Positions 28,089 to 53,773 of a stretch of 64,000 nt of DNA are shown one piece after another. Position 1 is the first letter of the stretch. Every line of letters starts with the position of its first letter. The notes below the pieces were generated by a model. It was not told the DNA's origin, made no database searches, and was given only the letters and a program-made list of their open reading frames with translations. Location of the stretch: the NCBI GenBank assembly GCA_963849325.1, contig CAWKHF010000007.1:128001-192000 (forward strand), given 5' to 3'. The DNA comes from an uncultured Planctomycetota bacterium (GTDB lineage: Bacteria; Planctomycetota; Planctomycetia; Gemmatales; Gemmataceae). A program made the translations under genes and the position numbers.

Positions 28089-29224
<1,136 letters not shown>

Positions 29225-29228
<4 letters not shown>

Positions 29229-30406
29229 CCAAACACCTCCGCCGGGTCGGCTGTCTTCACCTTGCGCAGGGCGAGCAGGCCGGACAGCACGCACATGAGG
29301 GACGTCAAACTGAAGATTAACAGGATGCGTAAAGGCGTCAAGTGCATGGGCAGCCCGACCAGCAAGTCCAGGCCGCGATAGAGCAGCGCGCTCAGCGCCA
29401 GCCCCGGCAGGAAGCCGAGTACGGCCAGCCACAGCGCCTCGCGCAGGACCGTGCCGTTGAGGTAGCCGCCGGCGTAGCCGATGGCCTTGAGCGTGGCGTA
29501 CTCGGCCAGGTGCTCGGCCACGTCCGTCGAGATGATCTGGTAGCAGATGACGGCGCCGACGATGAAGCCCATGCACAGACCGAACTGGAAGATGAAGCCG
29601 ACGGGCGTGGCCGTCTGCCAGTAATGCTTCTCGGCGGCGATGAATTCGCCCTTGGTGAACACGTTGACGTCGTCGGGCAACAACTCGCGGACATGCCGTC
29701 GAGCCGCCTCGACGTTGGTCCCCGGCTCCAGCTGGACGACGCCGACGTCGGTCAGGTGGAGCGTGGCGTTGGGCGACAGCTCGTTGGGAAACAGCCGGGA
29801 GTAAGTCAGGTCGCTCATGACGACGCTGCCGTCGCTGGCGAAGTCGGTGCCCAGCGTGAAGGTGTCGGTCACGTGGACGGTATGCTGGGCCAACTCGCGG
29901 TCCATGCCCGCATGGATGTGGCCATACTCGCGCTTCGATTTGAGGTCCATGAGTACGTTGAAGGGAATTTTCAGGTCGGCGCGGTGGGCATTGATGGCCG
30001 GGTTGGTCAGCACGGGCTGTTCGGGGTCGAAGGCGATGACGCGGATGGGGTGAGTGCTGTGCCGCTGGGCCTCGGCGACGCCCGTGTCCTTCCAAAAGGA
30101 CGAGACGTATTCGAGATAGACCGGAAACGCCCGACGCACGCCGGGGACCATGCGCGCCTGTTCGAGACGCTGGCGCGTGAACTGTTCCTTGATGGCCAGG
30201 GCGTAGCGGGCCTTGCTGACGAGGACCAACTCGCCGTTGAACTGCTCGATCAGCTCGACCGAGGCGTCCAACAGCGCGTTCCAGAAGCCCAACTCAACGA
30301 ACATGAGGAAGACGGCGAAAGCGACGGCGAGGACGCGGACGAGCAGGCGGCGCTTGTCGTGCGTCAGGTTGAGCCAGGCCAGCGGCACGCGGGAGAAGAT
30401 CGACAT
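29225..30406 (-). CDS. devC: DevC-family ABC permease
   Basis: PLAWLNLTHDKRRLLV..LAVAFAVFLMFVELGF, YQIISTDVAEHLAEYATLKAIGY, LRKVKTADPAEVF. Confidence 0.9.
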
Positions 30407-30407
30407 A

Positions 30408-31580
30408 TCAGAATAGCTCCGCGGGATCGGCGGCCTTGACCTTGCGCAGCGCCAGCAGGCCGGACAGCGAGCACATGACGATCGACAACAGCAGTACGCC
30501 GCCGGCCCGTCCCCAGGTCATCGACAACAGCAGGCTGGTCATTTCCCGGCCCAGGGCGTACAGGGCCAGCGCCACCACGAAGCCCGGCAGATAGCCGAGC
30601 ACCGCCAACGCCAGCGCCTGCCGCAGCACGACGCCGGACAAATAGCGCGGGCCGTAGCCGATGGCCTTGAGCGTGGCGTACTCGGCGAAGTGATCGGTGA
30701 TGTCCGTGGCGATGACCTGGTAGACGAAAATCACGCCGACGATGAGGGCCACGACCACGCCCAGGAGGAAGATGATGCCGACTGAGGTGCGGTACATCCA
30801 ATACTCCCGTTCGCGCTGCTCGACCTCGCCGCGCGTGAAGACGCGGACCTCGTCGCGCGGGCTGGTGGTGTACAGGGAGCGGGCTAGGTCCGCCTTGACC
30901 GCGTCGGCCCGAGCGCGCGCTTCCGGCTTGAGCTTGATTAACCCAAGGGCGGGCTGTTGCAGCGCCTTGGCGGCGTTGAGGCGGGCGTAGGTGCGGTCGC
31001 TGGTCAGGACCATGCCGTCGGAGCCGTAGCCGGTGCCGATGGTGAACTGGCCGACGACCTCGACGGTGGTTTGGTTCAACTCGGTCTCGACGCCGCGATG
31101 GCGCGGCCCGAAGTAATTGCGAGTGCCGGTGTCCATCAGCACGGTGTCCGGCGTGCGCAGCCGGCGCAGGCACTTATCGGCCGACTCGGTACGGAAGACG
31201 CGCTCGCGCCGCCACACAGGGTCGTCGAGGTTGCAGGCGAGGACAAGGATGGCGCGGCGCTGCTTGCTGCGGTCCTGGATGCGCCAGGTGGACCAGTCGA
31301 TGTACAGCGGCGAGACGTTGGCGACATCGCCGTGCTCCAGTGCCTGGTAGACGCGGTAGAGAGGAAAGCTGCGAGGCCGCGTCGTGTTGAGATAATTACT
31401 CGACAGCAGGACCAGGTCGAAATCGAGGGCGTCATACAGCGTCGTCGAGGCCAGCTCGGCGGAGCCGTAAAAACCCAGCTGCATGAACACGAGCAGAATG
31501 GCGAAGGACACACCGAGGACGGCCACGAGGGTCCGCACCGGCTGATGCAGCAGGTTCCGCAATACCAGGGGCGTTTTCAT
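30408..31580 (-). CDS. devC: DevC-family ABC permease (second copy)
   Basis: MKTPLVLRNL..QPVRTLVAVLGVSFAILLVFMQLGF, YQVIATDITDHFAEYATLKAIGY, ADPAELF. Confidence 0.9.
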   Translation of the reverse strand: MKTPLVLRNLLHQPVRTLVAVLGVSFAILLVFMQLGFYGSAELASTTLYDALDFDLVLLSSNYLNTTRPRSFPLYRVYQALEHGDVANVSPLYIDWSTWRIQDRSKQRRAILVLACNLDDPVWRRERVFRTESADKCLRRLRTPDTVLMDTGTRNYFGPRHRGVETELNQTTVEVVGQFTIGTGYGSDGMVLTSDRTYARLNAAKALQQPALGLIKLKPEARARADAVKADLARSLYTTSPRDEVRVFTRGEVEQREREYWMYRTSVGIIFLLGVVVALIVGVIFVYQVIATDITDHFAEYATLKAIGYGPRYLSGVVLRQALALAVLGYLPGFVVALALYALGREMTSLLLSMTWGRAGGVLLLSIVMCSLSGLLALRKVKAADPAELF

Positions 31581-31593
31581 CGGCACCCCTTTC

Positions 31594-31652
31594 GTTTAGC
31601 CGCGACGCGCAGCGGAGCGCGGCTCGCGCTCCGCTGCGCGTCGCGGCTAAAC
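31594..31652. repeat. REP-like palindrome family A, copy 1
   Basis: gtttagccgcgacgcgcagcggagcgc-loop-gcgctccgctgcgcgtcgcggctaaac. Confidence 0.95.
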
Positions 31653-31680
31653 AAGGATTTCGACGGAGTAGAACCGTGTT

Positions 31681-32859
31681 TTAGCGTGTACCATCGGCCC
31701 GCCCCGTCTCAATCTCGACCCGGACTTGATGCCCGATCAGGTCGGCGACGCGCTGGGGCTGGTCCAGTTCGACCTTCACGTCCACGACGCGATTATCCAC
31801 GGCGGCGCGCGGGTCCAGATCGACCACCCGCTCGGCCAATACTCGATCCCTTCCATACGACCCGGCCGGTCAGCGACTCGTCCGGCTTGAAAATGTGGCT
31901 GGTCACGGTCGCCTTCTGGCCGACCTGGACGCGCTCGATGTCGGTCTCGTAAACTTCGGTTAGAACGATCATTTTCGCGGTGTTGGCCAGCTGCAAGATG
32001 GGCTGGCCGCGGACCAGCTCGCCTTCGTGAACGTGGATGCGGAGGATCTTGCCGCCCGTGGGCGCCGGACTTGCGTCTCCTTGAGCCGTTCGTTCGCCTG
32101 GGCGATTTGCTGCTCGAGCAGCTCCAGCGAGATGGCGCTCTGGTTGCGCTTCAGCTCGGCCTTGGCGGACTCCAGCTGCGCCTTGGCCAAGCTGCGGTTC
32201 AGCTCTTGGCCCTTGCTCATCTTTTTGTACTGGCATTCGGCGGCGACGAGTTCGGCGTGGATCTGGTTCCGCAGTAGTCGTTGCTTTTCCTTGTCCTGAT
32301 CGGCGACGGTGTCCCCGGCCGCGACGTAGCGCTCGTAATCCCTCTTGGCGTTTTCTTCCTGGGCCTTGAGAAAGTCGATCTTGGTCTTCTGCGCCTCGAT
32401 TTCGAGGGGTTCGACTTCCTCGATCTGCTCGCCGCGAATCTCTTCGACGTGGATCTGGGCGTTGCCACTGGCCGTGATGGCCTGCAAGCGTTTCTTCGCT
32501 TCCTCCAGCTGCGCCTCCGCCACTTTTCGTTCCAGCTCGCGCAAGGTCTCGCTATCCAGGACGGCCAGCAACTGGCCCTTCTCGACGTGGTTGCCCTCCT
32601 GCACCTTCAGCTGGGCGATGCGATCCGGCACCGACACGCCAACCGAGAGCACGTCGTCCTTGGGCTCGATGCGTCCCAGGGCAACAACCTTGTCGAGGGC
32701 GCCGTCCGGCCCGCTGTCGCCGCCCGCTTCCGACGGCGCCGCCGGATTGCCGCGCAGCGAGACCGTGACCCAGCCGGCGGCGAACCCAGCGCCCAGGGCC
32801 GCGATGGTCAGGAGTATCCACAACCCCGTATGCCCGCGTCTCTGGGGTTGAGCCGGCAT
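31681..32859 (-). CDS. devB: DevB/HlyD-family membrane fusion protein; frameshifts near 32065 and 31825
   Basis: N-terminal TM, VVALGRIEPKDDVLSV...IAQLKVQEGNHVEKGQLLAVLDS, coiled coil, EVYETDIERVQVGQKATV, DNRVVDVKVELD...GTR-stop at 31681. Confidence 0.85.
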
Positions 32860-33299: not shown

Positions 33300-35822
33300 A
33301 TGTATGAACGCTTCACGGATCGCGCCCGCAAGGTGATGCAGCTGGCCAACCAGGAGGCCCAGCGCTTCAACCACGAGTACATCGGCACCGAGCACATCCT
33401 CCTGGGCCTGGTCAAGGAAGGCTCCGGCGTCGCCGCCAACGTCCTCAAGAACCTCGACATCGACCTGCGCAAGATCCGCCTGGAGGTCGAGAAGATCGTC
33501 CAGTCCGGCCCGGACATGGTCACGATGGGCAAGCTGCCCCAGACGCCGCGGGCCAAGAAGGTCATCGAGTACTCCATCGAAGAGGCCCGCAACCTCAACC
33601 ACAACTACGTCGGCACCGAACACCTGCTGCTGGGCCTGCTGCGCGAGCAGGAGGGCGTGGCCGCCCAGGTCCTCATGAACCTCGGGCCTCAAGCTGGAAG
33701 ACGTGCGCGAGGAAGTCCTGAACTTACTGGGGCACAATATGGCGACGGAAGAAAGCGGCGGCGGCGGCGGCGGCGAACGGCAGACGAGCAAGGGCAAGTC
33801 CAAGACCCCGGCCCTGGACAGCTTCGGCCGCGACCTCACCGAACTGGCCCGCCAGGGCAAGCTCGACCCGGTCATCGGCCGGCAGAACGAGATCGAGCGC
33901 GTCATCCAGGTCCTCAGCCGCCGCACCAAGAACAACCCCGTCCTGCTCGGCGAGGCCGGCGTCGGCAAGACCGCCATCGTCGAGGGCCTGGCCCAGCTGG
34001 TCGTCGATAGCAACGTCCCCGAGCTGCTGCGCGACCGCCGCATCGTCGTCCTCGACCTGGCCATGATGGTCGCCGGCACCAAGTACCGCGGCCAGTTCGA
34101 GGAGCGCATCAAGGCCGTCATGAACGAGGTCCGCCGGGCCAAGAACACCATCCTGTTCATCGACGAGCTGCACACGCTCGTCGGCGCCGGCGGCGCCGAA
34201 GGGCGCCATCGACGCCTCCAACGTGCTCAAGCCGGCCCTGGCCCGCGGCGAGATCCAGTGCATCGGCGCCACCACCCTCGACGAGTACCGCAAGTACATC
34301 GAGAAGGACGGCGCCCTGGACCGCCGCTTCCAGCAGATCATCGTCAACCCGCCCTCCAAGGACGAGACGATCGAGATCCTCAAGCGGCCTGCGCGACCGC
34401 TACGAGGCGCACCACCGCGTCCAGATCAAGGACGAGGCGCTGGAGGCGGCCGTCGAGCTGTCCGACCGCTACATCAGCGGCCGCTGCCTGCCGGACAAGG
34501 CCATCGACGTGATCGACGAGGCCGGCGCCCGCGTCCGCCTCAAGGCCATGACCCGGCCGCCGGACCTCAAGGAGCATCGACGGCCAGATCGAGCAGCTCA
34601 ACCAGGAGAAGGAGGCCGCCGTCGCCGAGCAGGACTTCGAGAAGGCCGCCCACCTGCGCGACCAGGCCGACAAGCTCAAGAAGAAGAAGGAGACCGATCA
34701 CCCGCGAGTGGCGCGAGAAGTCCAAGGAGATCGACGGCGTCGTCGATGAGGAGGTGATCCCGAGGTCGTCAGCAAGATGACCGGCGTGCCGCTGACGCGC
34801 ATCGACGACGACGAGACGCAGCGCCTGCTGACGATGGAAGACGAGCTGCACAAGCACGGTCGTCAGCCAGCACGAGGCCATCAAGGCCATCGCCAAGGCG
34901 GTGCGCAAGAGCCGGGCCGGCCTGAAGGACCCGAAGCGGCCGATCGGCAGCTTCATCTTCGCCGGCCCCACCGGCGTCGGCAAGACGCTGCTGGCCAAGC
35001 AGCTGGCCAAGTTCATGTTCGGCGACGAGAACGCGCTGGTGCAGATCGACATGTCCGAGTACATGGAGAAGCACAACGTCAGCCGGCTCGATCGGCGCCC
35101 CGCCGGGCTACATCGGCTACGAAGAGGGCGGCCAGCTGACCGAGAAGATCCGCCGCCGGCCGTACAGCGTGGTGCTGCTCGACGAGATCGAGAAGGCCCA
35201 CCCCGACGTCTGGAACATGCTGCTGCAGATCATGGAGGAGGGCCGGCTGACCGACAACGTCGGCCGGACGATCGACTTCAAGAACACCATCCTGATCATG
35301 ACGACGAACATCGGCGCCGAGCAGATCGCCGGCCGCCGCGAGTTCGGCATCCACACCGCCGGCGCCGCAACGAGGACGCGACCTACGAGGCCATGAAGGA
35401 GCAGCTCAAGGACGAGATGGAGACGCAACTTCCGGCCGGAGTTCCTCAACCGCCTGGACGACATCATCGTCTTCCGCAGCCTGACCGAGGACGACCTCAA
35501 GCACATCATCGACATCGAGCTGGCCAAGGTGACGAAGCGGCTGACCGAGAAGGGCCTGACGCTGGTGCTGACCGACGAGGCCAAGGACTTCCTGATCGAG
35601 AAGGGCACCAGCCTCGAGTACGGTGCCCGGCCGCTGCGCCGGGCCATCGAGCACTACCTCGAAGACCCGCTGTCCGAGGACTTGCTGCGCGGCACCTTCG
35701 AGGGCAAGGACACCATCACCGTGCGCGTCAAGGAGGAGAACGGCGAGAAGAAGCTGTCCTTCGACGCCACGACGACCGCCACGCCCGAACTGGTCGGCGC
35801 CGGCAGCGAGGCCAAGAACTGA
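33300..35822 (+). CDS. clpC: ATP-dependent Clp protease ATP-binding subunit ClpC; about ten frameshifts in this assembly
   Basis: [90 protein letters not shown]. Confidence 0.95.
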
Positions 35823-35850
35823 CACCCGCCGGTCCAAAACCGCAACTTCT

Positions 35851-35883
35851 GAGGGGCACCTGGCAAAGGTGCCCCTCTTTTTT
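35851..35883 (+). terminator. Intrinsic terminator after clpC
   Basis: gaggggcacct-ggcaa-aggtgcccctc followed by tttttt. Confidence 0.8.
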
Positions 35884-35889
35884 CTCTTC

Positions 35890-35956
35890 CGTTTAGCCGC
35901 GACGCGCAGCGGAGCGCGGGAACCTCCCGCGCTCCGCTGCGCGTCGCGGCTAAACG
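35890..35956. repeat. REP-like palindrome family A, copy 2
   Basis: Same arms as 31594, different loop. Confidence 0.95.
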
Positions 35957-37654: not shown

Positions 37655-38021
37655 ATGACGGCCAATCCGTTGCTCAACCACATCTTGAGCGACGAGCGAC
37701 TGACGAGCGGTTTAGGTGACGCGGAAGCCCGCGTTCTGGTAGAATGGCTGGTGGAGCAGGCGGAAGAGCTGACGCGGATCGCCGCCGCCGCAGAGGCCGA
37801 CTCCGCGGTGCGGTGGCTGTGCCGCCGGGGCAGGGCCGTGGCTCATTTCGTCCGCCTGTGGTGCCTGGAAGAAGCGCGGGGCCGCCGGGCAGCTGGCCGC
37901 CGCCGAACGCTTCGCCTGGCCGCTTCCGGAGTCCAACGCCGATCCGTGCGAGCTGATGCAAGCCATCGTTTCCTGTGAGAGCGATCAGTTCTGGCAACAA
38001 CGCCGTCCCCTGGCGGCCTGA
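37655..38021 (+). CDS. Small hypothetical protein; frameshift near 37880
   Basis: GGAGGGG RBS; MTANPLLNHILSDERLTSGLGDAEARVLVEWLV...; continues as QLAAAERFAWPLP...DPCELMQAI. Confidence 0.6.
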
Positions 38022-38173: not shown

Positions 38174-40300
38174 GTGAACGCCGCGACTAACTCTCCTTCC
38201 AGTCCTTCCGACCTCGAGCAAGAGCGTCGCCGTATCGCCCATCGGCTGGAAGAAGTCGCCAAGCTGAGCGACACCAACGTCCCGCCCGGGGCCTTTTACG
38301 GCGAAATGCTCAAGCGTCTGCTGGAATCGCTGGCCGCCCCCGCCGGTGCCATTTGGCGCGTACCCCACAGGGCAACTTGCAGCTCCAGTACCAGATCAAC
38401 ATCAAGGAAATCGGTCTGGAGCAGAACGAAGAAGTGCGAAAAAGCCACGAGGAACTGCTGCGGCAGGCGGTGACGCAGACGAAGCCGTTCCACGTGCCGC
38501 CGCGCAGCAGCGTCGGCACGCCGGAGCCGGGCAAGACGCCGGCCGGCAACCTCACCGATTACACCCTGCTGATTTCGCCTATCCTGGTCAATCAGCAGAT
38601 GGCCGGACTCATTGAGGTCTGGCAGGGCGCCAATCGGCCGCCGCAGGCCATCACCGGCTATCTGCAGTACATGGGCTTCATGTCGGAGCTGTCTTCGCGC
38701 TATCAGCGCAATCAGCTCATGGGACAGTTGGCCGGCCAACAGCAGGTATGGTCGCAGCTGGAGGCGTTCGCCCGGCAAGTCCACAACAGCTTGAATCCCA
38801 CCGAGGTCGCCTACCTGGTGGCCAACGAAGGCCGCCGACTGATCGAATGCGATCGCGTCAGCGTGGCCGTGCGCCACAGCTCCAAGGCGCGCATCGAGGC
38901 CGTCAGCGGCGCCGACGTGGTCGAAACGCGCTCCAACCTCGTTCGCTTGATGCGTACCCTGTGCGAGCGCGTGCTGAGCTGGGGCGAGAAGCTGGTCTTC
39001 AACGGCACCCGCGACGACAGTCTGCCGCCGAAGGTGCTGGCGGCGCTGGATGCGTACCTGGCCGAGAGCAATAGCAAGCTGCTGGTCGTGCAGCCGTTGA
39101 AGGACGAGCGCGAGAAGGAGAGTAAGCGGCCGGCACGCTCCGCTCTGCTCATGGAGTGCTTCGAGCCGCCGGCCCAGCCGCAGCAGATCCTCGCCCGTCT
39201 CGACGTGGTCTCTCGTCACGCCACGCCCGCCCTATACAACGCCGTCGAGCATCGCCGCATTCCGATGCGCATGCTGTGGCTGCCGTTGGCCAAGGTGCAG
39301 GAGGGCATCGGCGGCAAGGCCAAGGCCATCTCCGCCGTCGCCGTTGCTCTGCTCAGCGTCCTGGGCGCCGCCCTGTATTTCGTGCCTTATCAGCTGAAGA
39401 TGGAATCGCACGGCAAGCTGGTGCCGTGGGCCCGTCGCGTCATCTATCCGCCGGCCAACGGCACCATCATGAAGTTCGAGGTCGAGCCGGGCGACGTCGC
39501 CCGCGAGGATCGACGCCTGGCGACCGTTTTCGACCTTGAGTTGCAGAAGAAGTTGAACGCCATGATGGAGATGATCGCCGGTGCCGAGACGGAGATGCTC
39601 CAGGCGCAGGCGAACGCCTCGACGCACCGGGCTAGCCCAAGGCGACAAGATCACCTACCGCGAGAAAGCGCGGATGCACGAAGACCTGGTGAAACGCAAG
39701 AGACAGGAGTTGTATGAGTTCATTCAGCGTACCAACGCCCGGCCCGATAAGCCTGGCGAATTTGAACTCCGCGCCCCGCGGTTGACGGACGAGGAACGGC
39801 TGCGCGTCATTCGTCCGGAGTGGACCGTCCTCAACGGCAACTTCAAGGAGGAGTGGACCAATCGCATGGCCCGCCCCTCCGATCCGATCCTGCGCCTGGG
39901 CGTCAAGGATGGACCGTGGGAGATCGAACTGCGCATCCCGCAGAAACACATTAGCCAGGTGCTCAAAGCGTACGAACACAATGGCGGTCAGCCGCTCGAC
40001 ATCGAGTTTTTGCTCCGCAGCGATCCGACGCGGACGTATCGGGGCAAGCTGTACCGCGAGAAAATCGCCGGCGAGGCCCTGCCCAACCGCGACGAAAAGG
40101 ACGAGCCGGAGCCGGAGGTTCTCGCCTACGCCAGCATTGATGACGAGAGCATCGATCCGGCCTACCGCCTCTCACGCGAATCGCTGACCAGCGGCACGGA
40201 AATCCACGCCAAGATTCGCTGCGGCAAACATCGTCTGGGATATGCCCTGTTCTACGGGGTCTGGGAGTTCTTCTACGAAAAAGTCGTCTTCTTCTTCTAA
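38174..40300 (+). CDS. GAF-like domain / HlyD-type periplasmic adaptor fusion; frameshifts near 38360 and 39630
   Basis: FARQVHNSLNPTEVAYLVANEGRRLIECDRVSV...IEAVSGADVVETRSN; TM; GKLVPWARRVIYPPANGTIMKFEVEPGD; GTEIHAKIRCGKHRLGYALFYGVWEF. Confidence 0.8.
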
Positions 40301-40402
40301 GAGCCAGGAACACCGAGAAACATCGGCGAGCCGAAGCCAACGGCGCGAGGGCAAAGGTGCCCTCATGCCCACACCCCCGGCTCGCCCCGAGGAGTCGAAT
40401 CC

Positions 40403-42591
40403 ATGATCCGCTGGATAGCCGTCTGTGTGCTGCTGTCGGCGTGTGCCGTCGCCGCCGTTTGGGCGGTCGCCCCGAAAACCATCGTTGAGGACAAGGCTTC
40501 GCCCCCGTCGTCCCCTGCCGCCAAAGCCTTCGAGGCGCAGGGTGCGCCGGCGGCGGATAACAATCCTACACCCAGGGCGCCGGCGACCCTGCCTGGAGTG
40601 CGGCCCACGCCCGAGCTTGTCGAGTACAAGGACACGAAGCAGGCTGCCAGCGCCGAGCCGATCCACATCTATGGCTGCCGGCTGGTCATCGACCCGATCC
40701 AGGAAGTCCCCACGGAAAAGGAAGGCAAGATTGCTATTCATCGGCACCGAAGTGTTGCCCGGCGAGGTCGTGCCTGCGGACAAGAAACTTCCCGAGGCGG
40801 AGATCGGTTTCCTGGCCGTCCCCGTTGGCAAGGATGAAGAAGCTTCACGGACGGGGAGAAGCCCTTCCAACTCGATCCGAATTCCTCGACCCGGTATCGC
40901 CGTCTCCGCGAGACCGATCCGCTAGAGCCAAACAAGATCGCACTGGCTCGGGAGTTCCGGCCTGTCCGCAAGCTCCAGGTCGGCGACAAGGTGAAGCGCG
41001 GCCAGCTGCTGGCCCTGGTCAACCCGCGCAAAGTCGTTCGACGATGTGGCCATGAAGGTTGCCAAGATCAACGCCGCCGAGGCCGACCGCCACTCCGCCG
41101 AGAAACAGAAGAAGGAATTCGCATCGGCGTTGGAAGCTCGGCATGGATGCCAACCGCCGCGTTCCCGGCACCGTGTCCAGGGATGATGTGGAGGCCTGTG
41201 AAATTGCAGCGTGAGAAATACGGTTCGGAGGAGGAAGTCAAGGAGGCCGAGATCATCAAGGCGCAGCGCGAGCTGAACGCGGCCCTGACCGACCTGCGCA
41301 TGCACGAAATCCGCGCCAGCATCGACGGCGTCATCAAGGCCATCTACAAGAACGCCGAGGGCGAGGCCGTCAAGCCGCTGGAGTCGGTCCTGCAAATCCA
41401 GAACCCCGAACGGCTGCGCGTGGAAGGACTGCTGGAAGTGCAGGAGGCGCTCAAGCTCAAGGTCGGCATGAAGGTCATTGTCGGGGCGAGCCGGCCGGAG
41501 GCCCCTCACCTGGTCATCAGCGGGCACCTCGCCACGGTCAACGCCGTCGCCGTCAGCAAGGGCAAACGGCCGATCGTCGTCTCCGGCAGCGACGATGAGA
41601 CGCTGCGCGGCTGGGACGCGACCACCGGCGACAGGTTGTGGAAGTTGGAGGGGCTGCGTCAGCCGTCCGCGCCGTGGCCTGCACGCCGCCGACCGCCAAG
41701 AGCAACCTCGCGCTGTTCGGTTGCGCCGACGGCACGGTTCGCCTGCTCGATTTGGACAATCCCAAGCAGGGATCGCGTGACCTGGCCGAGCGGCATCAGG
41801 GTGGCGTCAACGGCGTGGCCTTCAGCCCCAATGGTGAGGTGTGCGCCACCTGCGGCGACGACCGCACCATTATCCTGTGGAAGACCGAGAGCGGCGAGTT
41901 GTTGCATCGTTTGACGTACCATCGCGGGCCGGTCACGTCGGTGCAGTTCGCGTCGGCCGACCGGCTGGTGTCGGCCGGCCGCGACGGCCGCCTGGCGGTC
42001 TGGGACGTCGAACCGGGCAAGCCGCCCGTCAAGCTGCCGCCGACCTTCGAGGGTCGCACCGCCGAAGTCTCCCAGGTCGGCGTCAGCCCCGATGGCCGCA
42101 CCGTCCTGTTCGACCAGGGCAAGGAACTGCGTCTGTTGTCGTTGGCCGACAAGCGGATCGAGGGCACGGTGCAGAACCCGTCGGACGCCATGAATTTCTC
42201 GACGATGGCTCTGTTCGCGCCGGACGGCAAGACGATCCTGACCAACGGCTCGGCGGCGGCCAAGCTGCAATTGTGGCGGACGCCCGGCCCACAAGGGCGA
42301 GCCTCGGAACTGCGCCAGCTCATCTGGGGCGGGGCTCCGGCCACCTGCGGAGCGTTCGCCCCCGAGGACGGCTCCTTCGCCGTCACCGGCACGCAGGACC
42401 ATAAAGTGCTGCTGTGGACCATGCCGGAGAAGAACGAGATCGAGAGTCGCCTGGAGGCCCACCTGATGCTGGTCGAGAAGTACCTCGACACGCAGTCGCG
42501 GCAGGTCCGCGTCTGGGCCGAGCTGCAGAACCCCGGCTGGCTCATCCCCGGCACTCAGGCCACCATGGTCGTTCCGCCGCAGCAGAAGTAG
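40403..42591 (+). CDS. HlyD-type periplasmic adaptor with an inserted WD40 beta-propeller; several frameshifts
   Basis: Signal/anchor; GDKVKRGQLLALV; EIRASIDGVIKAIYKNAEGEAVKPLESVLQI; WD repeats (SGSDDETLRGWD, TCGDDRTIILWK, SAGRDGRLAVWD); ends VEKYLDTQSRQVRVWAELQNPGWLIPGTQATM. Confidence 0.78.
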
Positions 42592-42602
42592 CTGGAATAA
42601 CA

Positions 42603-42670
42603 TCGTTTAGCCGCGACGCGCAGCGGAGCGCGGCAAGCGACGCGCTCCGCTGCGCGTCGCGGCTAAACGA
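42603..42670. repeat. REP-like palindrome family A, copy 4
   Basis: Same arms as 31594; lies between two co-oriented operon genes. Confidence 0.95.
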
Positions 42671-42685
42671 GAATCGGTGACATTC

Positions 42686-45250
42686 ATGGATACCACCACT
42701 CCCGCCAAAGACCTCGAACGACGCAAGCAAGTGCGCGTCCGCCTGCGCCGCGACCTTGCCATCGAGGCGCAGAAGTACGAAGGCCGCACCTTCCACGTCG
42801 TCAAGGATCCCGTCAGTCTCCGCTACTACCGCCTCAAGGACAACGAGTATTACCTACTGCAATTCCTCGACGGCCAGCACACCCTCGAAGATGCGCAGAA
42901 GGAGTACGAGAAGCATTACCGCCCTGACCGCCTGAAGCTCGAAGACGTGGAGTCGTTCGCCCAGCAGCTCATCAACGCCGGCCTGGCCCAGAACGAGTCG
43001 CCGTGCGCCGGCAAGCAGCTCTACGACCAGCGGCAAAAACGCCGCCGCTCCGAGTGGATGCAGACGCTGACCAACATCCTCTACATCAAGATACCCGTCT
43101 TCGATCCGGATCGGCTGCTCAAGCGCATGATCCGCTGGCTGGGCTGGATCTTCTCGATGTGGTTCTTCGCCGTCAGCGTCGGCGTCATGCTGGCGGCGGC
43201 GATGCTGGTGATGACCCACTTCGAGACGTTCCGCTCCAAGCTGCCCGATCAGAACCTGTTCTTCCGCTTCAAGACCGTCGTCTATCTGTGGTGCGCCCTG
43301 GGCGTCGTCAAGGTCATCCACGAGTTCGGCCACGGACTCAGCTGCAAGGTGTTCGGCGGCGAGGTCCACGAGATGGGGGCGCTGTTTTTGTGCCTATCGC
43401 CGGCGCTGTACTGCAACGTCTCCGACGCCTGGACGCTGCCGAACAAGTGGCATCGCATCATCATCAGCGCCGCCGGCATCTACGTCGAGCTGGTCATCGC
43501 CGCCATCGCCACCTTTGTCTGGTGGCACACGCCGGCTTATCCGTTCGTCAACAACCTGGCCCTGAGCCTGATGGTGGTATGCAGCGTCAGCACTGTGGTC
43601 TTCAACGCCAACCCGCTGATGCGTTACGATGGCTACTACGTCCTGGCGGACTGGCTGGAGATCCCCAACCTGCGCGAGCGCTCCAATCGCTTCCTCAAGC
43701 ACCTGACGCTGGAGCACTGCCTGGGTGTGGAGGTGCCGCCCGAACCGTACATGGCCCTGTGGCGGCGCATCCTGTTCGTGACCTACGCGGTGGGCAGCTA
43801 CATCTACCGCTGGGTCGTGACCTTCACCATTTTGTGGTTTTTGTATTCGTTCTTGCGGCCGTACAAGCTGGAAGTCATCAGCCAGGTGCTGGCCATCGGC
43901 TCGGCCGCGTCGATGGCTGGCTGGCCGCTGTATCGACTGGGCAAGTCGATCTACCGACGTGGGAGACTCCCTGACATGAAGAAGTGGCGTGTGGTGGTCA
44001 GCGCCGCCGTGCTGACGGCGCTGCTCCTGTTCGCCTGCCTGGTCCCCGTGCCCGTCAGCCGCATTCGCGCTCGGGCCATGCTCCAGGCAGACCCGTCGGC
44101 CTCCGGCAAGGTCTACGTTCGCCACGCCGGCATCCTGACCAAGCTGTACGTGCGGCCCGGCGATACCGTGGATGCGGGCGACGTGCTGGCCGAGTTCTCT
44201 GACCGCGAACTCGACGCCGATCTGCTCAAGGCACGCATCGAGCGCGATCATGCCGCCGAGCAGATCAAGGTGCTCGAACAGCGAAGGATGCGCAACAACG
44301 ATCCCGCGGAAGTCGGGAAGATCAACGAGGAGACCGCCAAGCTGGAGTCCCAGCGGATGGACGCGGCAGTTCGCGTGGCGGCGCTGGAGAAGGTCCACGA
44401 TCAGGATCTGGTGTTGCACGCGCCTTGCTCCGGCGTCATCGGCATGGCTCCCTCGATCGAGGACGTCAGTCGCTTCTTCCAGGACGACCCGAGCGCGCCG
44501 TTTTGTTCCATCAACGAGCCGGGCCGCGTCCGCGTGTGCGTGCCGCTGGAGACGCCGGAGTTCAACCGCCTCAAGGAAAACCTGGAGCAGCTGTCCGACG
44601 CGGCGACGGCCACGCGCAAGCTGATGAAGAAGCGCGTCACCGTCTCTTACGACAAGACGCGCCTGGCGGACGTGCTGGCCGATCTGCAACATCAGGTCAA
44701 GGGGTTGCACTTTCAGCTAGACAAGGACGGCGGCGTCTCCGAGAGCCTGCCCGTCTCGTACCAGGCGAAGAATCAACGGCTGGGATGGGTGCTGGACGGG
44801 GTGTTCGAGAAGCTGGGTCTGGGCTTCGTGCTCCAGTCCGAGCCGGACGGCGAGCACGACGGCTGGCTGCTGGTGCGGGCGGGTCGGGAACGCGGCGAGC
44901 CGGAGGGCGGCCGGCGCCTGGCCGATCTGGACGTGACCATCCGCATCCAGGGCCGCGATACCCAGACGTGGAAGGGCAAGGTCCGCCAGCTGCCCGAGTC
45001 GGAGGCCAAGTCGATCCCGCTGGCCCTGTCCAACCGCGGCGGCGGGCCGGTGGCCGTCAAGGCGGCCGCTCCCGGCAACGCCTTGATCCCGTCCACGCAG
45101 CATTACCTGGTTTATGTCGATCTCGTCGATGCCGACGCGTCGATCCTGCCCGGCGAGATGGCCCAGGTGAAAATCTACTGCCAGCCCGAGACCTGCCTGC
45201 ACTGGCTCTGGCGCACGCTCAATAGCACCTTCGATCTCGGTCTGATGTAA
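42686..45250 (+). CDS. PqqD/RRE-like + M50 (site-2) metalloprotease + HlyD-type adaptor fusion
   Basis: N-terminal VVKDPVSLRYYRL...LLQFLDGQHTLED...FAQQLINAGL; HEFGH (HExxH); NANPLMRYDGYY; GILTKLYVRPGDTVDAGDVLAEF; LHAPCSGVI. Confidence 0.85.
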   Translation: MDTTTPAKDLERRKQVRVRLRRDLAIEAQKYEGRTFHVVKDPVSLRYYRLKDNEYYLLQFLDGQHTLEDAQKEYEKHYRPDRLKLEDVESFAQQLINAGLAQNESPCAGKQLYDQRQKRRRSEWMQTLTNILYIKIPVFDPDRLLKRMIRWLGWIFSMWFFAVSVGVMLAAAMLVMTHFETFRSKLPDQNLFFRFKTVVYLWCALGVVKVIHEFGHGLSCKVFGGEVHEMGALFLCLSPALYCNVSDAWTLPNKWHRIIISAAGIYVELVIAAIATFVWWHTPAYPFVNNLALSLMVVCSVSTVVFNANPLMRYDGYYVLADWLEIPNLRERSNRFLKHLTLEHCLGVEVPPEPYMALWRRILFVTYAVGSYIYRWVVTFTILWFLYSFLRPYKLEVISQVLAIGSAASMAGWPLYRLGKSIYRRGRLPDMKKWRVVVSAAVLTALLLFACLVPVPVSRIRARAMLQADPSASGKVYVRHAGILTKLYVRPGDTVDAGDVLAEFSDRELDADLLKARIERDHAAEQIKVLEQRRMRNNDPAEVGKINEETAKLESQRMDAAVRVAALEKVHDQDLVLHAPCSGVIGMAPSIEDVSRFFQDDPSAPFCSINEPGRVRVCVPLETPEFNRLKENLEQLSDAATATRKLMKKRVTVSYDKTRLADVLADLQHQVKGLHFQLDKDGGVSESLPVSYQAKNQRLGWVLDGVFEKLGLGFVLQSEPDGEHDGWLLVRAGRERGEPEGGRRLADLDVTIRIQGRDTQTWKGKVRQLPESEAKSIPLALSNRGGGPVAVKAAAPGNALIPSTQHYLVYVDLVDADASILPGEMAQVKIYCQPETCLHWLWRTLNSTFDLGLM

Positions 45251-53311: not shown

Positions 53312-53773
53312 ATGTTCCGTCACCTGTTCCGTTCTCGTAAAGAAACTCGGCCCACGCGTCCGGTCTTCCGGCCGGCCCTGGAAAACCTGGAGAGCCGTGA
53401 GGTCCCGACCAATGTGGCTCAAGTAAGTGCGGCCTTGCAGGAGTTGCCTGGGGCCATCAACAACCTGGGCATAAACATCGCGGCCCAAAACGTCAAGAAC
53501 GGCGAGGCCAACTTCAACATTATCCGTAACAACGTCCAAACGCTCAGCAACAACGCCATCTTCTTCGCCCCCGGCCCGCGCTTGCAGATCGACACCGCTC
53601 TGTTCACGGGCGGTTTCCAGCTGTATCAGGATTCCTTTCAGCTCCTCCAGCTTGGTGATCAGCAAGACGCGAACCTGGTGGCCCAGGTTGGCGTTCAAGC
53701 GGTCCTGGGCGGCTACTTCGACTACCTGGCGATGTCCAACGGTATCAGCAAGGGCAACTTGACCCTGTCGTAG
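53312..53773 (+). CDS. Small protein with a planctomycete-type N-terminal LExLExR motif
   Basis: GGAG RBS; MFRHLFRSRKETRPTRPVFRPALENLESREVP followed by an Asn/Gln-rich helical region. Confidence 0.75.
   Translation: MFRHLFRSRKETRPTRPVFRPALENLESREVPTNVAQVSAALQELPGAINNLGINIAAQNVKNGEANFNIIRNNVQTLSNNAIFFAPGPRLQIDTALFTGGFQLYQDSFQLLQLGDQQDANLVAQVGVQAVLGGYFDYLAMSNGISKGNLTLS

Follow-up and report, generated by a model that had tools for sequence, protein, structure and literature searches.

The stretch analyzed here (the window) comprises 64,000 nucleotides from an uncultured planctomycete of the Gemmataceae (GenBank assembly GCA_963849325.1, contig CAWKHF010000007.1, positions 128,001 to 192,000 of the forward strand), and at 38174..45250 it carries three co-oriented genes that each encode a HlyD-type membrane-fusion, or adaptor, module with a different partner. 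We found this trio likely to be the inner-membrane and periplasmic core of a TolC-type secretion machine that operates without an ATP-binding cassette (ABC) transporter and serves proteins with an N-terminal LExLExR (LEPRxLL-type) leader. That the leader-bearing proteins are clients of the trio machine is in our view highly probable; the full model, in which export occurs in one step and is coupled to leader cleavage, we favor with less assurance. The gene set itself was already published in 2015, and the leader in 2004. An earlier note, made from the sequence alone, had described three co-oriented genes in this interval, and we recovered them at the same coordinates with the following features.

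38174..40300, + strand: gene 1, with a tandem GAF-like cytoplasmic region, one transmembrane helix and a HlyD-type membrane-fusion module; two frameshifts.
40403..42591, + strand: gene 2, with a hydrophobic N-terminal anchor, a Pro/Ala-rich linker and a membrane-fusion module whose beta-barrel is interrupted by a WD40 propeller; about six frameshifts.
42686..45250, + strand: gene 3, intact, 854 amino acids (ATG at 42686 to the stop at 45250), with a RiPP (ribosomally made and post-translationally modified peptide) recognition element (RRE), an M50 intramembrane protease and a membrane-fusion module.
42728..43000, + strand: winged helix of the RRE/PqqD type in gene 3 (residues about 15-105), from a predicted model.
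43319..43333, + strand: HEFGH zinc-binding motif of gene 3, residues 212-216; HExxH in 102 of 102 aligned sequences.
43604..43633, + strand: NANPLMRYDG motif of gene 3, residues 307-316, with Asp315 as the third zinc ligand, found in all 102 aligned sequences.
44591..44908, + strand: lineage-specific insert of about 105 amino acids in the adaptor barrel of gene 3, resembling a small protein at G000:C14:51398.

Gene 3 is present in a single copy in the genome. Peptidase_M50 scored above its Pfam cut-off, with PqqD and HlyD_D23 below theirs, and the best NCBIfam match was NF041824, the daptide intramembrane peptidase family (190.9 bits against a cut-off of 300), followed by a second RiPP peptidase family, NF058609, also below cut-off. 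Residues 15-395 were modeled with a predicted local distance difference test (pLDDT) score of 84.4 as an RRE-like N-terminus followed by a membrane domain, and residues 15-105 took the form of a three-strand, three-helix RRE winged helix, in agreement with the PqqD/RRE-like region proposed in the earlier note. The top structural matches of this N-terminus were RREs solved with leader peptides, 6jx3 (a lasso-peptide B1 protein) and 5v1u (Z 11.4, root-mean-square deviation 2.4-2.5 Å over 83-84 residues). The membrane domain matched site-2 proteases, including 3b4r (Z 7.6), RseP (9j83, Z 9.1) and SpoIVFB (8vjl, Z 8.1). A Foldseek search with the whole 15-395 model gave no match at E ≤ 0.001, and the same RRE and site-2 structures ranked first.

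The two catalytic motifs had been reported as intact, and both HExxH and the third-ligand Asp were retained in all 102 sequences of an alignment of the window with 101 of 102 loci, spanning Planctomycetota to Proteobacteria and including E. coli plasmids, a conservation that argues for the M50 domain of gene 3 being a working protease. In the model, HExxH and an NPxxxxDG-type third ligand fall within a predicted site-2-fold membrane domain, as in the M50/site-2 family. The RRE-M50 part was matched by 5,563 clusters (50% identity, E ≤ 1e-30), which may include related peptidases.

The candidate cargo consists of proteins with the planctomycete surface signal RRLxxExLExRxLLA or LxLExLExRxxP (PF07595; NF012209), which dates from Studholme 2004 and to which the published passages we drew on assign no export machinery (PMC8567305, PMC3343278). 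The same motif was counted in the genome that contains the window, where LExLExRxx[P/L] preceded by a basic stretch occurred 67 times, compared with 0-3 times for five scrambled motifs. A Met was found within 60 residues upstream of the motif in 61 of these 67 cases (median 31), and a hydrophobic signal-peptide core was seen in none of those 61 open reading frames (ORFs). The open frame after the motif had a median length of 602 residues. Among 16 mostly long leader proteins that were scanned, eight contained immunoglobulin-like (Ig), cadherin, PKD, CARDB, DUF11 or RHS domains, one contained DUF3466, one gave a spurious match and six gave no match at all. The idea of leader-bearing substrates thereby gained a candidate class, the LExLExR/LEPRxLL proteins, where the earlier note had named none. 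In Tuwongella immobilis the signal is reported on 52 genes, including eight of the ten longest proteins (PMC8567305).

Leader and module also occurred together across the phylum. Of 301 Planctomycetota genomes, 96 gave a match to the RRE-M50 profile; 93 of these were kept as module-positive and three, with weak partial matches, were scored negative; the module was present in 28 of the 29 genomes of the window genome's class. With NF012209 as the leader detector, 50 genomes contained both leader and module, 3 the leader only, 43 the module only and 205 neither, so that the module was found in 50/53 genomes with the leader versus 43/248 without it. The same table outside the window genome's class read 39/3/26/204. 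In one family of 15 genomes, the module was present in four and the leader in three, and all three leader genomes were module-positive; this within-family contrast points the same way as the phylum-wide association. A custom leader profile matched 57 genomes, of which 53 were module-positive, and it is not independent, since it was built with leaders from four sampled genomes. Ten leader-like matches from module-negative genomes were read individually: nine looked to be in the wrong frame or unrelated, and the single seemingly real one came from a genome with 6% contamination (G210), where its contig is 6 kb long. Five leader-positive, module-negative genomes were searched again for the module at E ≤ 0.01, and none was found.

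On proteobacterial plasmids, most of the loci fetched have a leader gene close to the module. A tblastn search identified 90 plasmid records with the module, of which 22 were fetched for taxonomic spread and 18 were annotated. NF012209 scored above cut-off in 17 of the 22 plasmid records versus 0 of 14 control genomes, and a large leader-bearing gene adjoined the module or lay shortly upstream of it in 19 of the 22 loci, although six of these 19 links, to genes that were unannotated, lay across the origin or stood 14 kb off, were deduced from the length of the open frame or from distance. In ten records the NF012209 match fell 18-48 codons from the start annotated for the large upstream gene, and three more had an upstream gene with a variant motif below cut-off. 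TolC was present in 10/18 annotated loci and a SecA paralog in 6/18, one locus being cut by the record start. No ABC ATPase was found in any of the 18 module operons; one plasmid locus had a standard type I ABC transporter nearby. The loci fell into two subtypes, one with the SecA paralog and often DUF3467 or SapC, the other with DUF4347-type cargo and TolC and no linked ATPase.

The subtype without the SecA paralog extends to plasmids of enterobacteria, with 18 records from Escherichia and 8 from Citrobacter. On one E. coli plasmid (NZ_CP081687.1, L108) the module is located behind a 4,459-residue Ig-like protein with a variant leader. In three loci from other Planctomycetota (L220, L222 and L225), a leader gene sits within the module, separating adaptor 2 from the GAF adaptor, or else immediately precedes the GAF adaptor.

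Complex prediction of the RRE-M50 part with a 42-residue leader gave a score of 0.57 compared with 0.02 for the best control, with contacts agreeing between runs to at least 78% and a partner pLDDT of at least 54. During calibration, 116/157 solved pairs and 2/215 mismatched pairs attained the mark; at scores of 0.60 or under, only 18 solved pairs and both mismatches did so. The prediction lends weak support to a leader-RRE/M50 complex and, because solved RRE-leader complexes exist, may reflect likeness to them. A published proteome of T. immobilis provided a further view of the trio. Three adjacent genes, GMBLW1_34420, GMBLW1_34410 and GMBLW1_34400, are annotated as encoding HlyD (80 kDa), WD40 (74 kDa) and M50 (86 kDa) proteins; each of the three was observed, for the most part in the membrane fractions S2 and S3. 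A 75-kDa SecA that lacks the wing/scaffold (SW) domain and is encoded at an unlinked site was seen in fraction S3 only (PMC8567305). These proteins were matched to the trio and the SecA paralog by annotation, size and order rather than by alignment.

The absence of an ABC ATPase, RND (resistance-nodulation-division) pump or TolC from the operon, as claimed earlier, was borne out by the domain and family matches of the three operon proteins. The description "ATPase-less" applies to the operon and not to the genome, which encodes a SecA_DEAD paralog on another contig (G000:C1, about 105.9-107.8 kb), unlinked to the operon and frameshifted. This paralog ends shortly after its second motor domain, without the SW tail, and its C-terminal piece scored 138-144 bits on paralog profiles, compared with 101-107 for the canonical SecA of the genome. 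The earlier note had proposed a survey for a linked ATPase, and the SecA paralog does adjoin the module in many relatives, though not in all. Among the 150 SecA matches listed, open frames of at most 790 residues occurred in 49 genomes, of which 47 were module-positive (a hand count; 62 further rows lay outside that list). A survey of the paralog by score alone across the 301 genomes was rejected as non-discriminating, since 192 passed, canonical SecA included. Elsewhere in the genome, about 12 TolC-type (OEP) genes were found.

These findings support a model in which the cytoplasmic RRE of gene 3, a predicted fold with weak in silico support for binding, would first bind the leader. By analogy with daptides, the M50 domain would then remove it, with the cut probably falling immediately behind the motif's xxP/xLL end. 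The shortened SecA paralog, which is present elsewhere in the genome, would feed the unfolded chain into the machine, and the three adaptor modules may together build a tube that crosses the periplasm and docks on a TolC also encoded elsewhere. More speculatively, the GAF domains might regulate the machine or assist in cargo recruitment, and a periplasmic accessory of the Gemmataceae type might be the role of the WD40 propeller. One copy for about 65 dispersed clients would make the machine a general export route in this genome, while the proteobacterial copies stand beside one giant client. We tentatively raise the still broader possibility, which we place just short of an even chance, that this is a distinct system, neither type I nor Sec, in which the RRE reads a tag, the M50 domain cleaves and gates, a stripped SecA pushes and three adaptors lead to TolC. 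It would then be the missing machinery of the planctomycete signal of 2004, a general surface pathway used by dozens of clients, RHS-repeat proteins among them, in Gemmataceae and relatives, and in Proteobacteria and Chlorobium an exporter of proteins that rank among the largest known.

Several observations weigh against this model. In 27 of the 93 module-positive genomes, no NF012209 or custom-profile leader was among the best 27-29 candidates, the number scored per genome, although 3 of 20 leader-negative module neighborhoods showed a divergent leader on reading; some loci, L197, L199 and L200 among them, had no leader gene within 20 kb. The genomes are related, so that Fisher p-values overstate the association. 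PF07595 was discarded as a leader detector, being noisy at E ≤ 0.02 and above cut-off in only 5/301 genomes, and at E ≤ 0.02 it gave no association outside the window genome's class (9/17/56/190, p 0.22). On the plasmid side, the Indioceanicola locus has leader genes only far off on its replicon, the upstream gene of the Magnetospirillum locus lacks the motif and is perhaps truncated, and the Phyllobacterium plasmid NZ_CP050303.1 (L101) has a 1412-residue upstream gene with a HrpK domain and no leader motif, possibly a second cargo class or a decayed locus. The SecA paralog was not in the fetched stretch of 11/18 annotated plasmid loci, indicating that the energy source is not uniform. No cognate TolC was matched in this genome by tblastn with eight module-linked TolCs. 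Binding, cleavage and export by the trio are all steps that we infer. Finally, a Chlorobium preprint reports, in the part available to us, that symbiosis proteins, among them two LEPRxLL giants, are periplasmic in free-living cells, and describes these two giants as lacking known transport signals despite their LEPRxLL domains (10.64898/2026.03.19.712371); this retention gives some support to a two-step route over a one-step route.

In such a two-step route, the RRE-M50 protein would remove the leader, SecYEG and the SecA paralog would carry the chain across the inner membrane, and the adaptors and TolC would act only from the periplasm to the outside. The motor does belong to the SecA family, and we know of no M50 domain that serves as a protein-conducting pore. 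The Chlorobium proteins reported to wait in the periplasm fit this route as well (10.64898/2026.03.19.712371). However, the paralog is without the wing/scaffold region that contacts SecYEG (PMC4452313), the leader lacks a hydrophobic core that would open SecY, and two adaptors are tethered to cytoplasmic domains (RRE and GAF), which suits a continuous conduit; we consider the two-step route unlikely, if a serious contender. A different possibility accepts the leader proteins as cargo and takes the M50 domain as non-cleaving toward them, either as a pore or scaffold or as a protease that cuts a regulator on a GAF-sensed signal. RseP and SpoIVFB, both among the structural matches of gene 3, cut membrane-tethered regulators. 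No cleaved client N-terminus was present in the data examined, and Kamneva and colleagues proposed the M50 protein as a pore in 2015 (PMC4452313). A pure pore would have no need of zinc ligands, yet these are invariant in 102 sequences, and the closest characterized family is an RRE-fused leader peptidase, leaving a non-cleaving role quite improbable.

Ordinary type I secretion, with an ABC transporter encoded elsewhere powering the adaptors, might draw on the ABC exporter set located 5-10 kb upstream on the other strand, and one plasmid locus does have a standard type I ABC transporter nearby. Against this stand the near absence of ABC ATPases from related loci (near 2/80, and in 0/18 plasmid module operons) and the identity of the linked ATPase, where present, as the SecA paralog, so that we regard this explanation as very unlikely. 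We give even less credence to maturation or export of a small daptide- or epipeptide-like ribosomal peptide in place of large proteins. Its appeal lies in the best family matches of gene 3, the RiPP peptidases NF041824 and NF058609, and in RREs being best known from RiPP pathways. Both matches are nevertheless below cut-off, the scanned neighbors included no tailoring enzymes (short precursor ORFs were not systematically searched), and the neighbors in other phyla are giant leader-bearing proteins.

The one-step model for the trio can be set against systems already described. The type-I-related gene set reported around a secondary SecA_DEAD protein by Kamneva, Poudel and Ward in 2015 shares with the present one a Peptidase_M50-HlyD protein, a HlyD secretion protein and a GAF-HlyD protein, the lack of an ABC transporter and a SecA paralog without the SW domain; there, too, TolC is only sometimes linked and partners can be encoded elsewhere in the genome (PMC4452313). 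In this genome we found all of the corresponding components, namely M50-HlyD, GAF-HlyD and a further HlyD protein and an SW-less SecA, with no ABC transporter. The earlier note was correct that similar trios are known, whereas its remark that it knew of no established mechanism passes over a set in print since 2015 with a proposal of the M50 protein as pore; the sections of that paper covered here name no substrate, leader, RRE, WD40 domain or 105-residue insert (PMC4452313). The daptide leader peptidase MpaP (NF041824) shares the fusion of an RRE to a site-2 protease with conserved HExxH and Asp, and the daptide leader motif ELExMEAP, with Pro at -1 and bound in RRE-dependent pathways, has spacing similar to that of LExLExRxxP (PMC10036551). 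In the description available to us, MpaP differs in having no adaptor module, short peptide substrates and ABC export, whereas the candidate clients here are hundreds to thousands of residues long. No MpaB, MpaC, MpaD or MpaM enzyme was found among the scanned neighbors of the trio, a survey that did not extend to short precursor ORFs, which for daptides end in a C-terminal Thr.

Type I systems such as HlyB-HlyD-TolC, LapBCE and SiiCDF resemble the proposed machine in membrane-fusion adaptors, a TolC-type exit and large repeat-rich surface cargo (PMC8277102). They rely on an ABC ATPase, whereas the trio here combines an M50 zinc protease and an RRE with three adaptors of different kinds. Canonical type I cargo has an uncleaved C-terminal signal and leaves in one step; the candidate clients here share an N-terminal motif. 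Of the canonical type I components, the membrane-fusion protein is present at the operon and the cognate ABC transporter is not, although a partner in trans is possible. PCAT/C39 (peptidase-containing ABC) transporters share the coupling of N-terminal leader cleavage to export, yet in the account consulted cleavable leaders are a feature of cargo below about 10 kDa, and C-terminal signals serve the large cargo (PMC8277102). Neither a C39 nor an ABC domain was detected in the three operon proteins by Pfam and NCBIfam scans. As far as their accessible text goes, a preprint on Aeromonas MbpA concerns an ABC-type Lap system, and an Azospirillum paper lists DUF4347 proteins without an export route. 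We found no paper joining leader and module in a search that lay largely outside subscription journals.

What our analyses add is a stand-alone, single-copy form of the module that apparently serves about 65 dispersed candidate clients, together with a phylum-wide co-occurrence test, the propeller insertion in gene 2 and proteome support in T. immobilis. The proposed link would connect two orphans: a secretion-like gene set that is widespread, ABC-free and lacking a known cargo, and a planctomycete export signal lacking a known machine. If correct, it would mean that RiPP leader-recognition logic has been reused to export very large proteins, would account for the way in which planctomycetes assemble a large part of their surface proteome, and could yield a short portable tag for large-protein export. 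Culturable planctomycetes and laboratory Proteobacteria allow a direct test of the leader-module link.

Of the operon genes, only gene 3 is free of the frameshifts the earlier note had pointed out, which number two in gene 1 (at about 38356 and about 39635) and about six in gene 2. Intact orthologues in close relatives were 72-75% identical to gene 1 across its main part and 45-77% identical to gene 2 piece by piece, and their domains were GAF plus HlyD-type for gene 1 and HlyD_3 plus WD40 for gene 2. Because 5 of 19 sampled genes with close homologues were broken across frames in the assembly, gene 1 among them, and these included a Clp/Hsp100-type ATPase (window 33300-35896) split over three frames despite 94% identity to a relative, the breaks in genes 1 and 2 are probably assembly indels; alternatively, though less probably, the two genes may be truly pseudogenized. 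The GAF-like domains proposed for gene 1 were recognizable, weakly in the window piece (E 0.04) and slightly above cut-off in the L009 orthologue. The WD40 propeller of gene 2 is likewise present, inserted inside the adaptor beta-barrel and not appended to it: when the intact L009 orthologue was modeled with AlphaFold2 (pLDDT 91.6), the propeller occupied residues ~200-510 between adaptor barrel strands. In a fold search this propeller matched WD40 structures at Z 36.6, with top matches that were all propellers and left the adaptor part uncovered.

The closest named relatives of the window trio are Gemmataceae. In a survey of 80 related loci from one-per-species genomes, the gene 1 C-terminal part was found in 64 and a WD40 match in 64, with genes 1 and 2 almost always upstream of gene 3 and ordered as in the window; many of the trio members not seen were at contig ends. 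Isosphaera- and Pirellula-type loci had a short gene 2 without the propeller. The earlier note would have taken its proposal as refuted had homologous operons always included a conventional ABC or RND transporter; an ABC ATPase lay near only 2 of these 80 loci and in none of the 18 annotated plasmid operons. Upstream of the operon, the window contains an ABC exporter set (28089-32859, - strand) with a HlyD-type adaptor, two FtsX-type permeases and an ATPase with a cyclic-nucleotide-binding domain. We rejected this set (28.1-32.9 kb) as a partner on the basis of that 2/80 count, and the Clp ATPase (33.3-35.9 kb), near only 1/80 related loci, was rejected as well. A small gene just upstream of gene 1 (37655-38020, + strand), seemingly frameshifted and with no Pfam family, had a match upstream of gene 1 in 22/80 related loci and elsewhere in one more, and is possibly a fourth, lineage-limited operon member.

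The insert of about 105 residues in the gene 3 barrel was present in 13 of 91 full-length aligned sequences and had no meaningful Pfam match; we take it, as an unconfirmed impression only, to be secretin/TonB N-domain-like. A small stand-alone protein with a signal-peptide-like start (G000:C14:51398-51724, L006) is 40% identical to it.

One candidate client lies within the window itself.

53312..53773, + strand: short ORF with a basic start and LExLExRxxP leader (motif at 53378), unlinked to the operon; no notable Pfam match.

Elsewhere in the genome, a tandem run of nine leader-bearing genes with mostly near-identical N-termini (G000:C5:133-161 kb) looks, from its sequence, like a local client expansion. 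Two leader-bearing RHS-repeat proteins of ~2000 residues each were also observed (L234 and L235; G000:C6:604840-610830 and 797424-803942); if RHS proteins leave by this route, its cargo would include interbacterial competition proteins besides adhesins. A DUF3467 gene (G000:C10:355070-355288, L228) lies ~1 kb downstream of a leader-bearing cadherin/Ig-repeat gene, an order that matches the giant gene-DUF3467 order of proteobacterial module loci, and its product is a candidate cargo chaperone.

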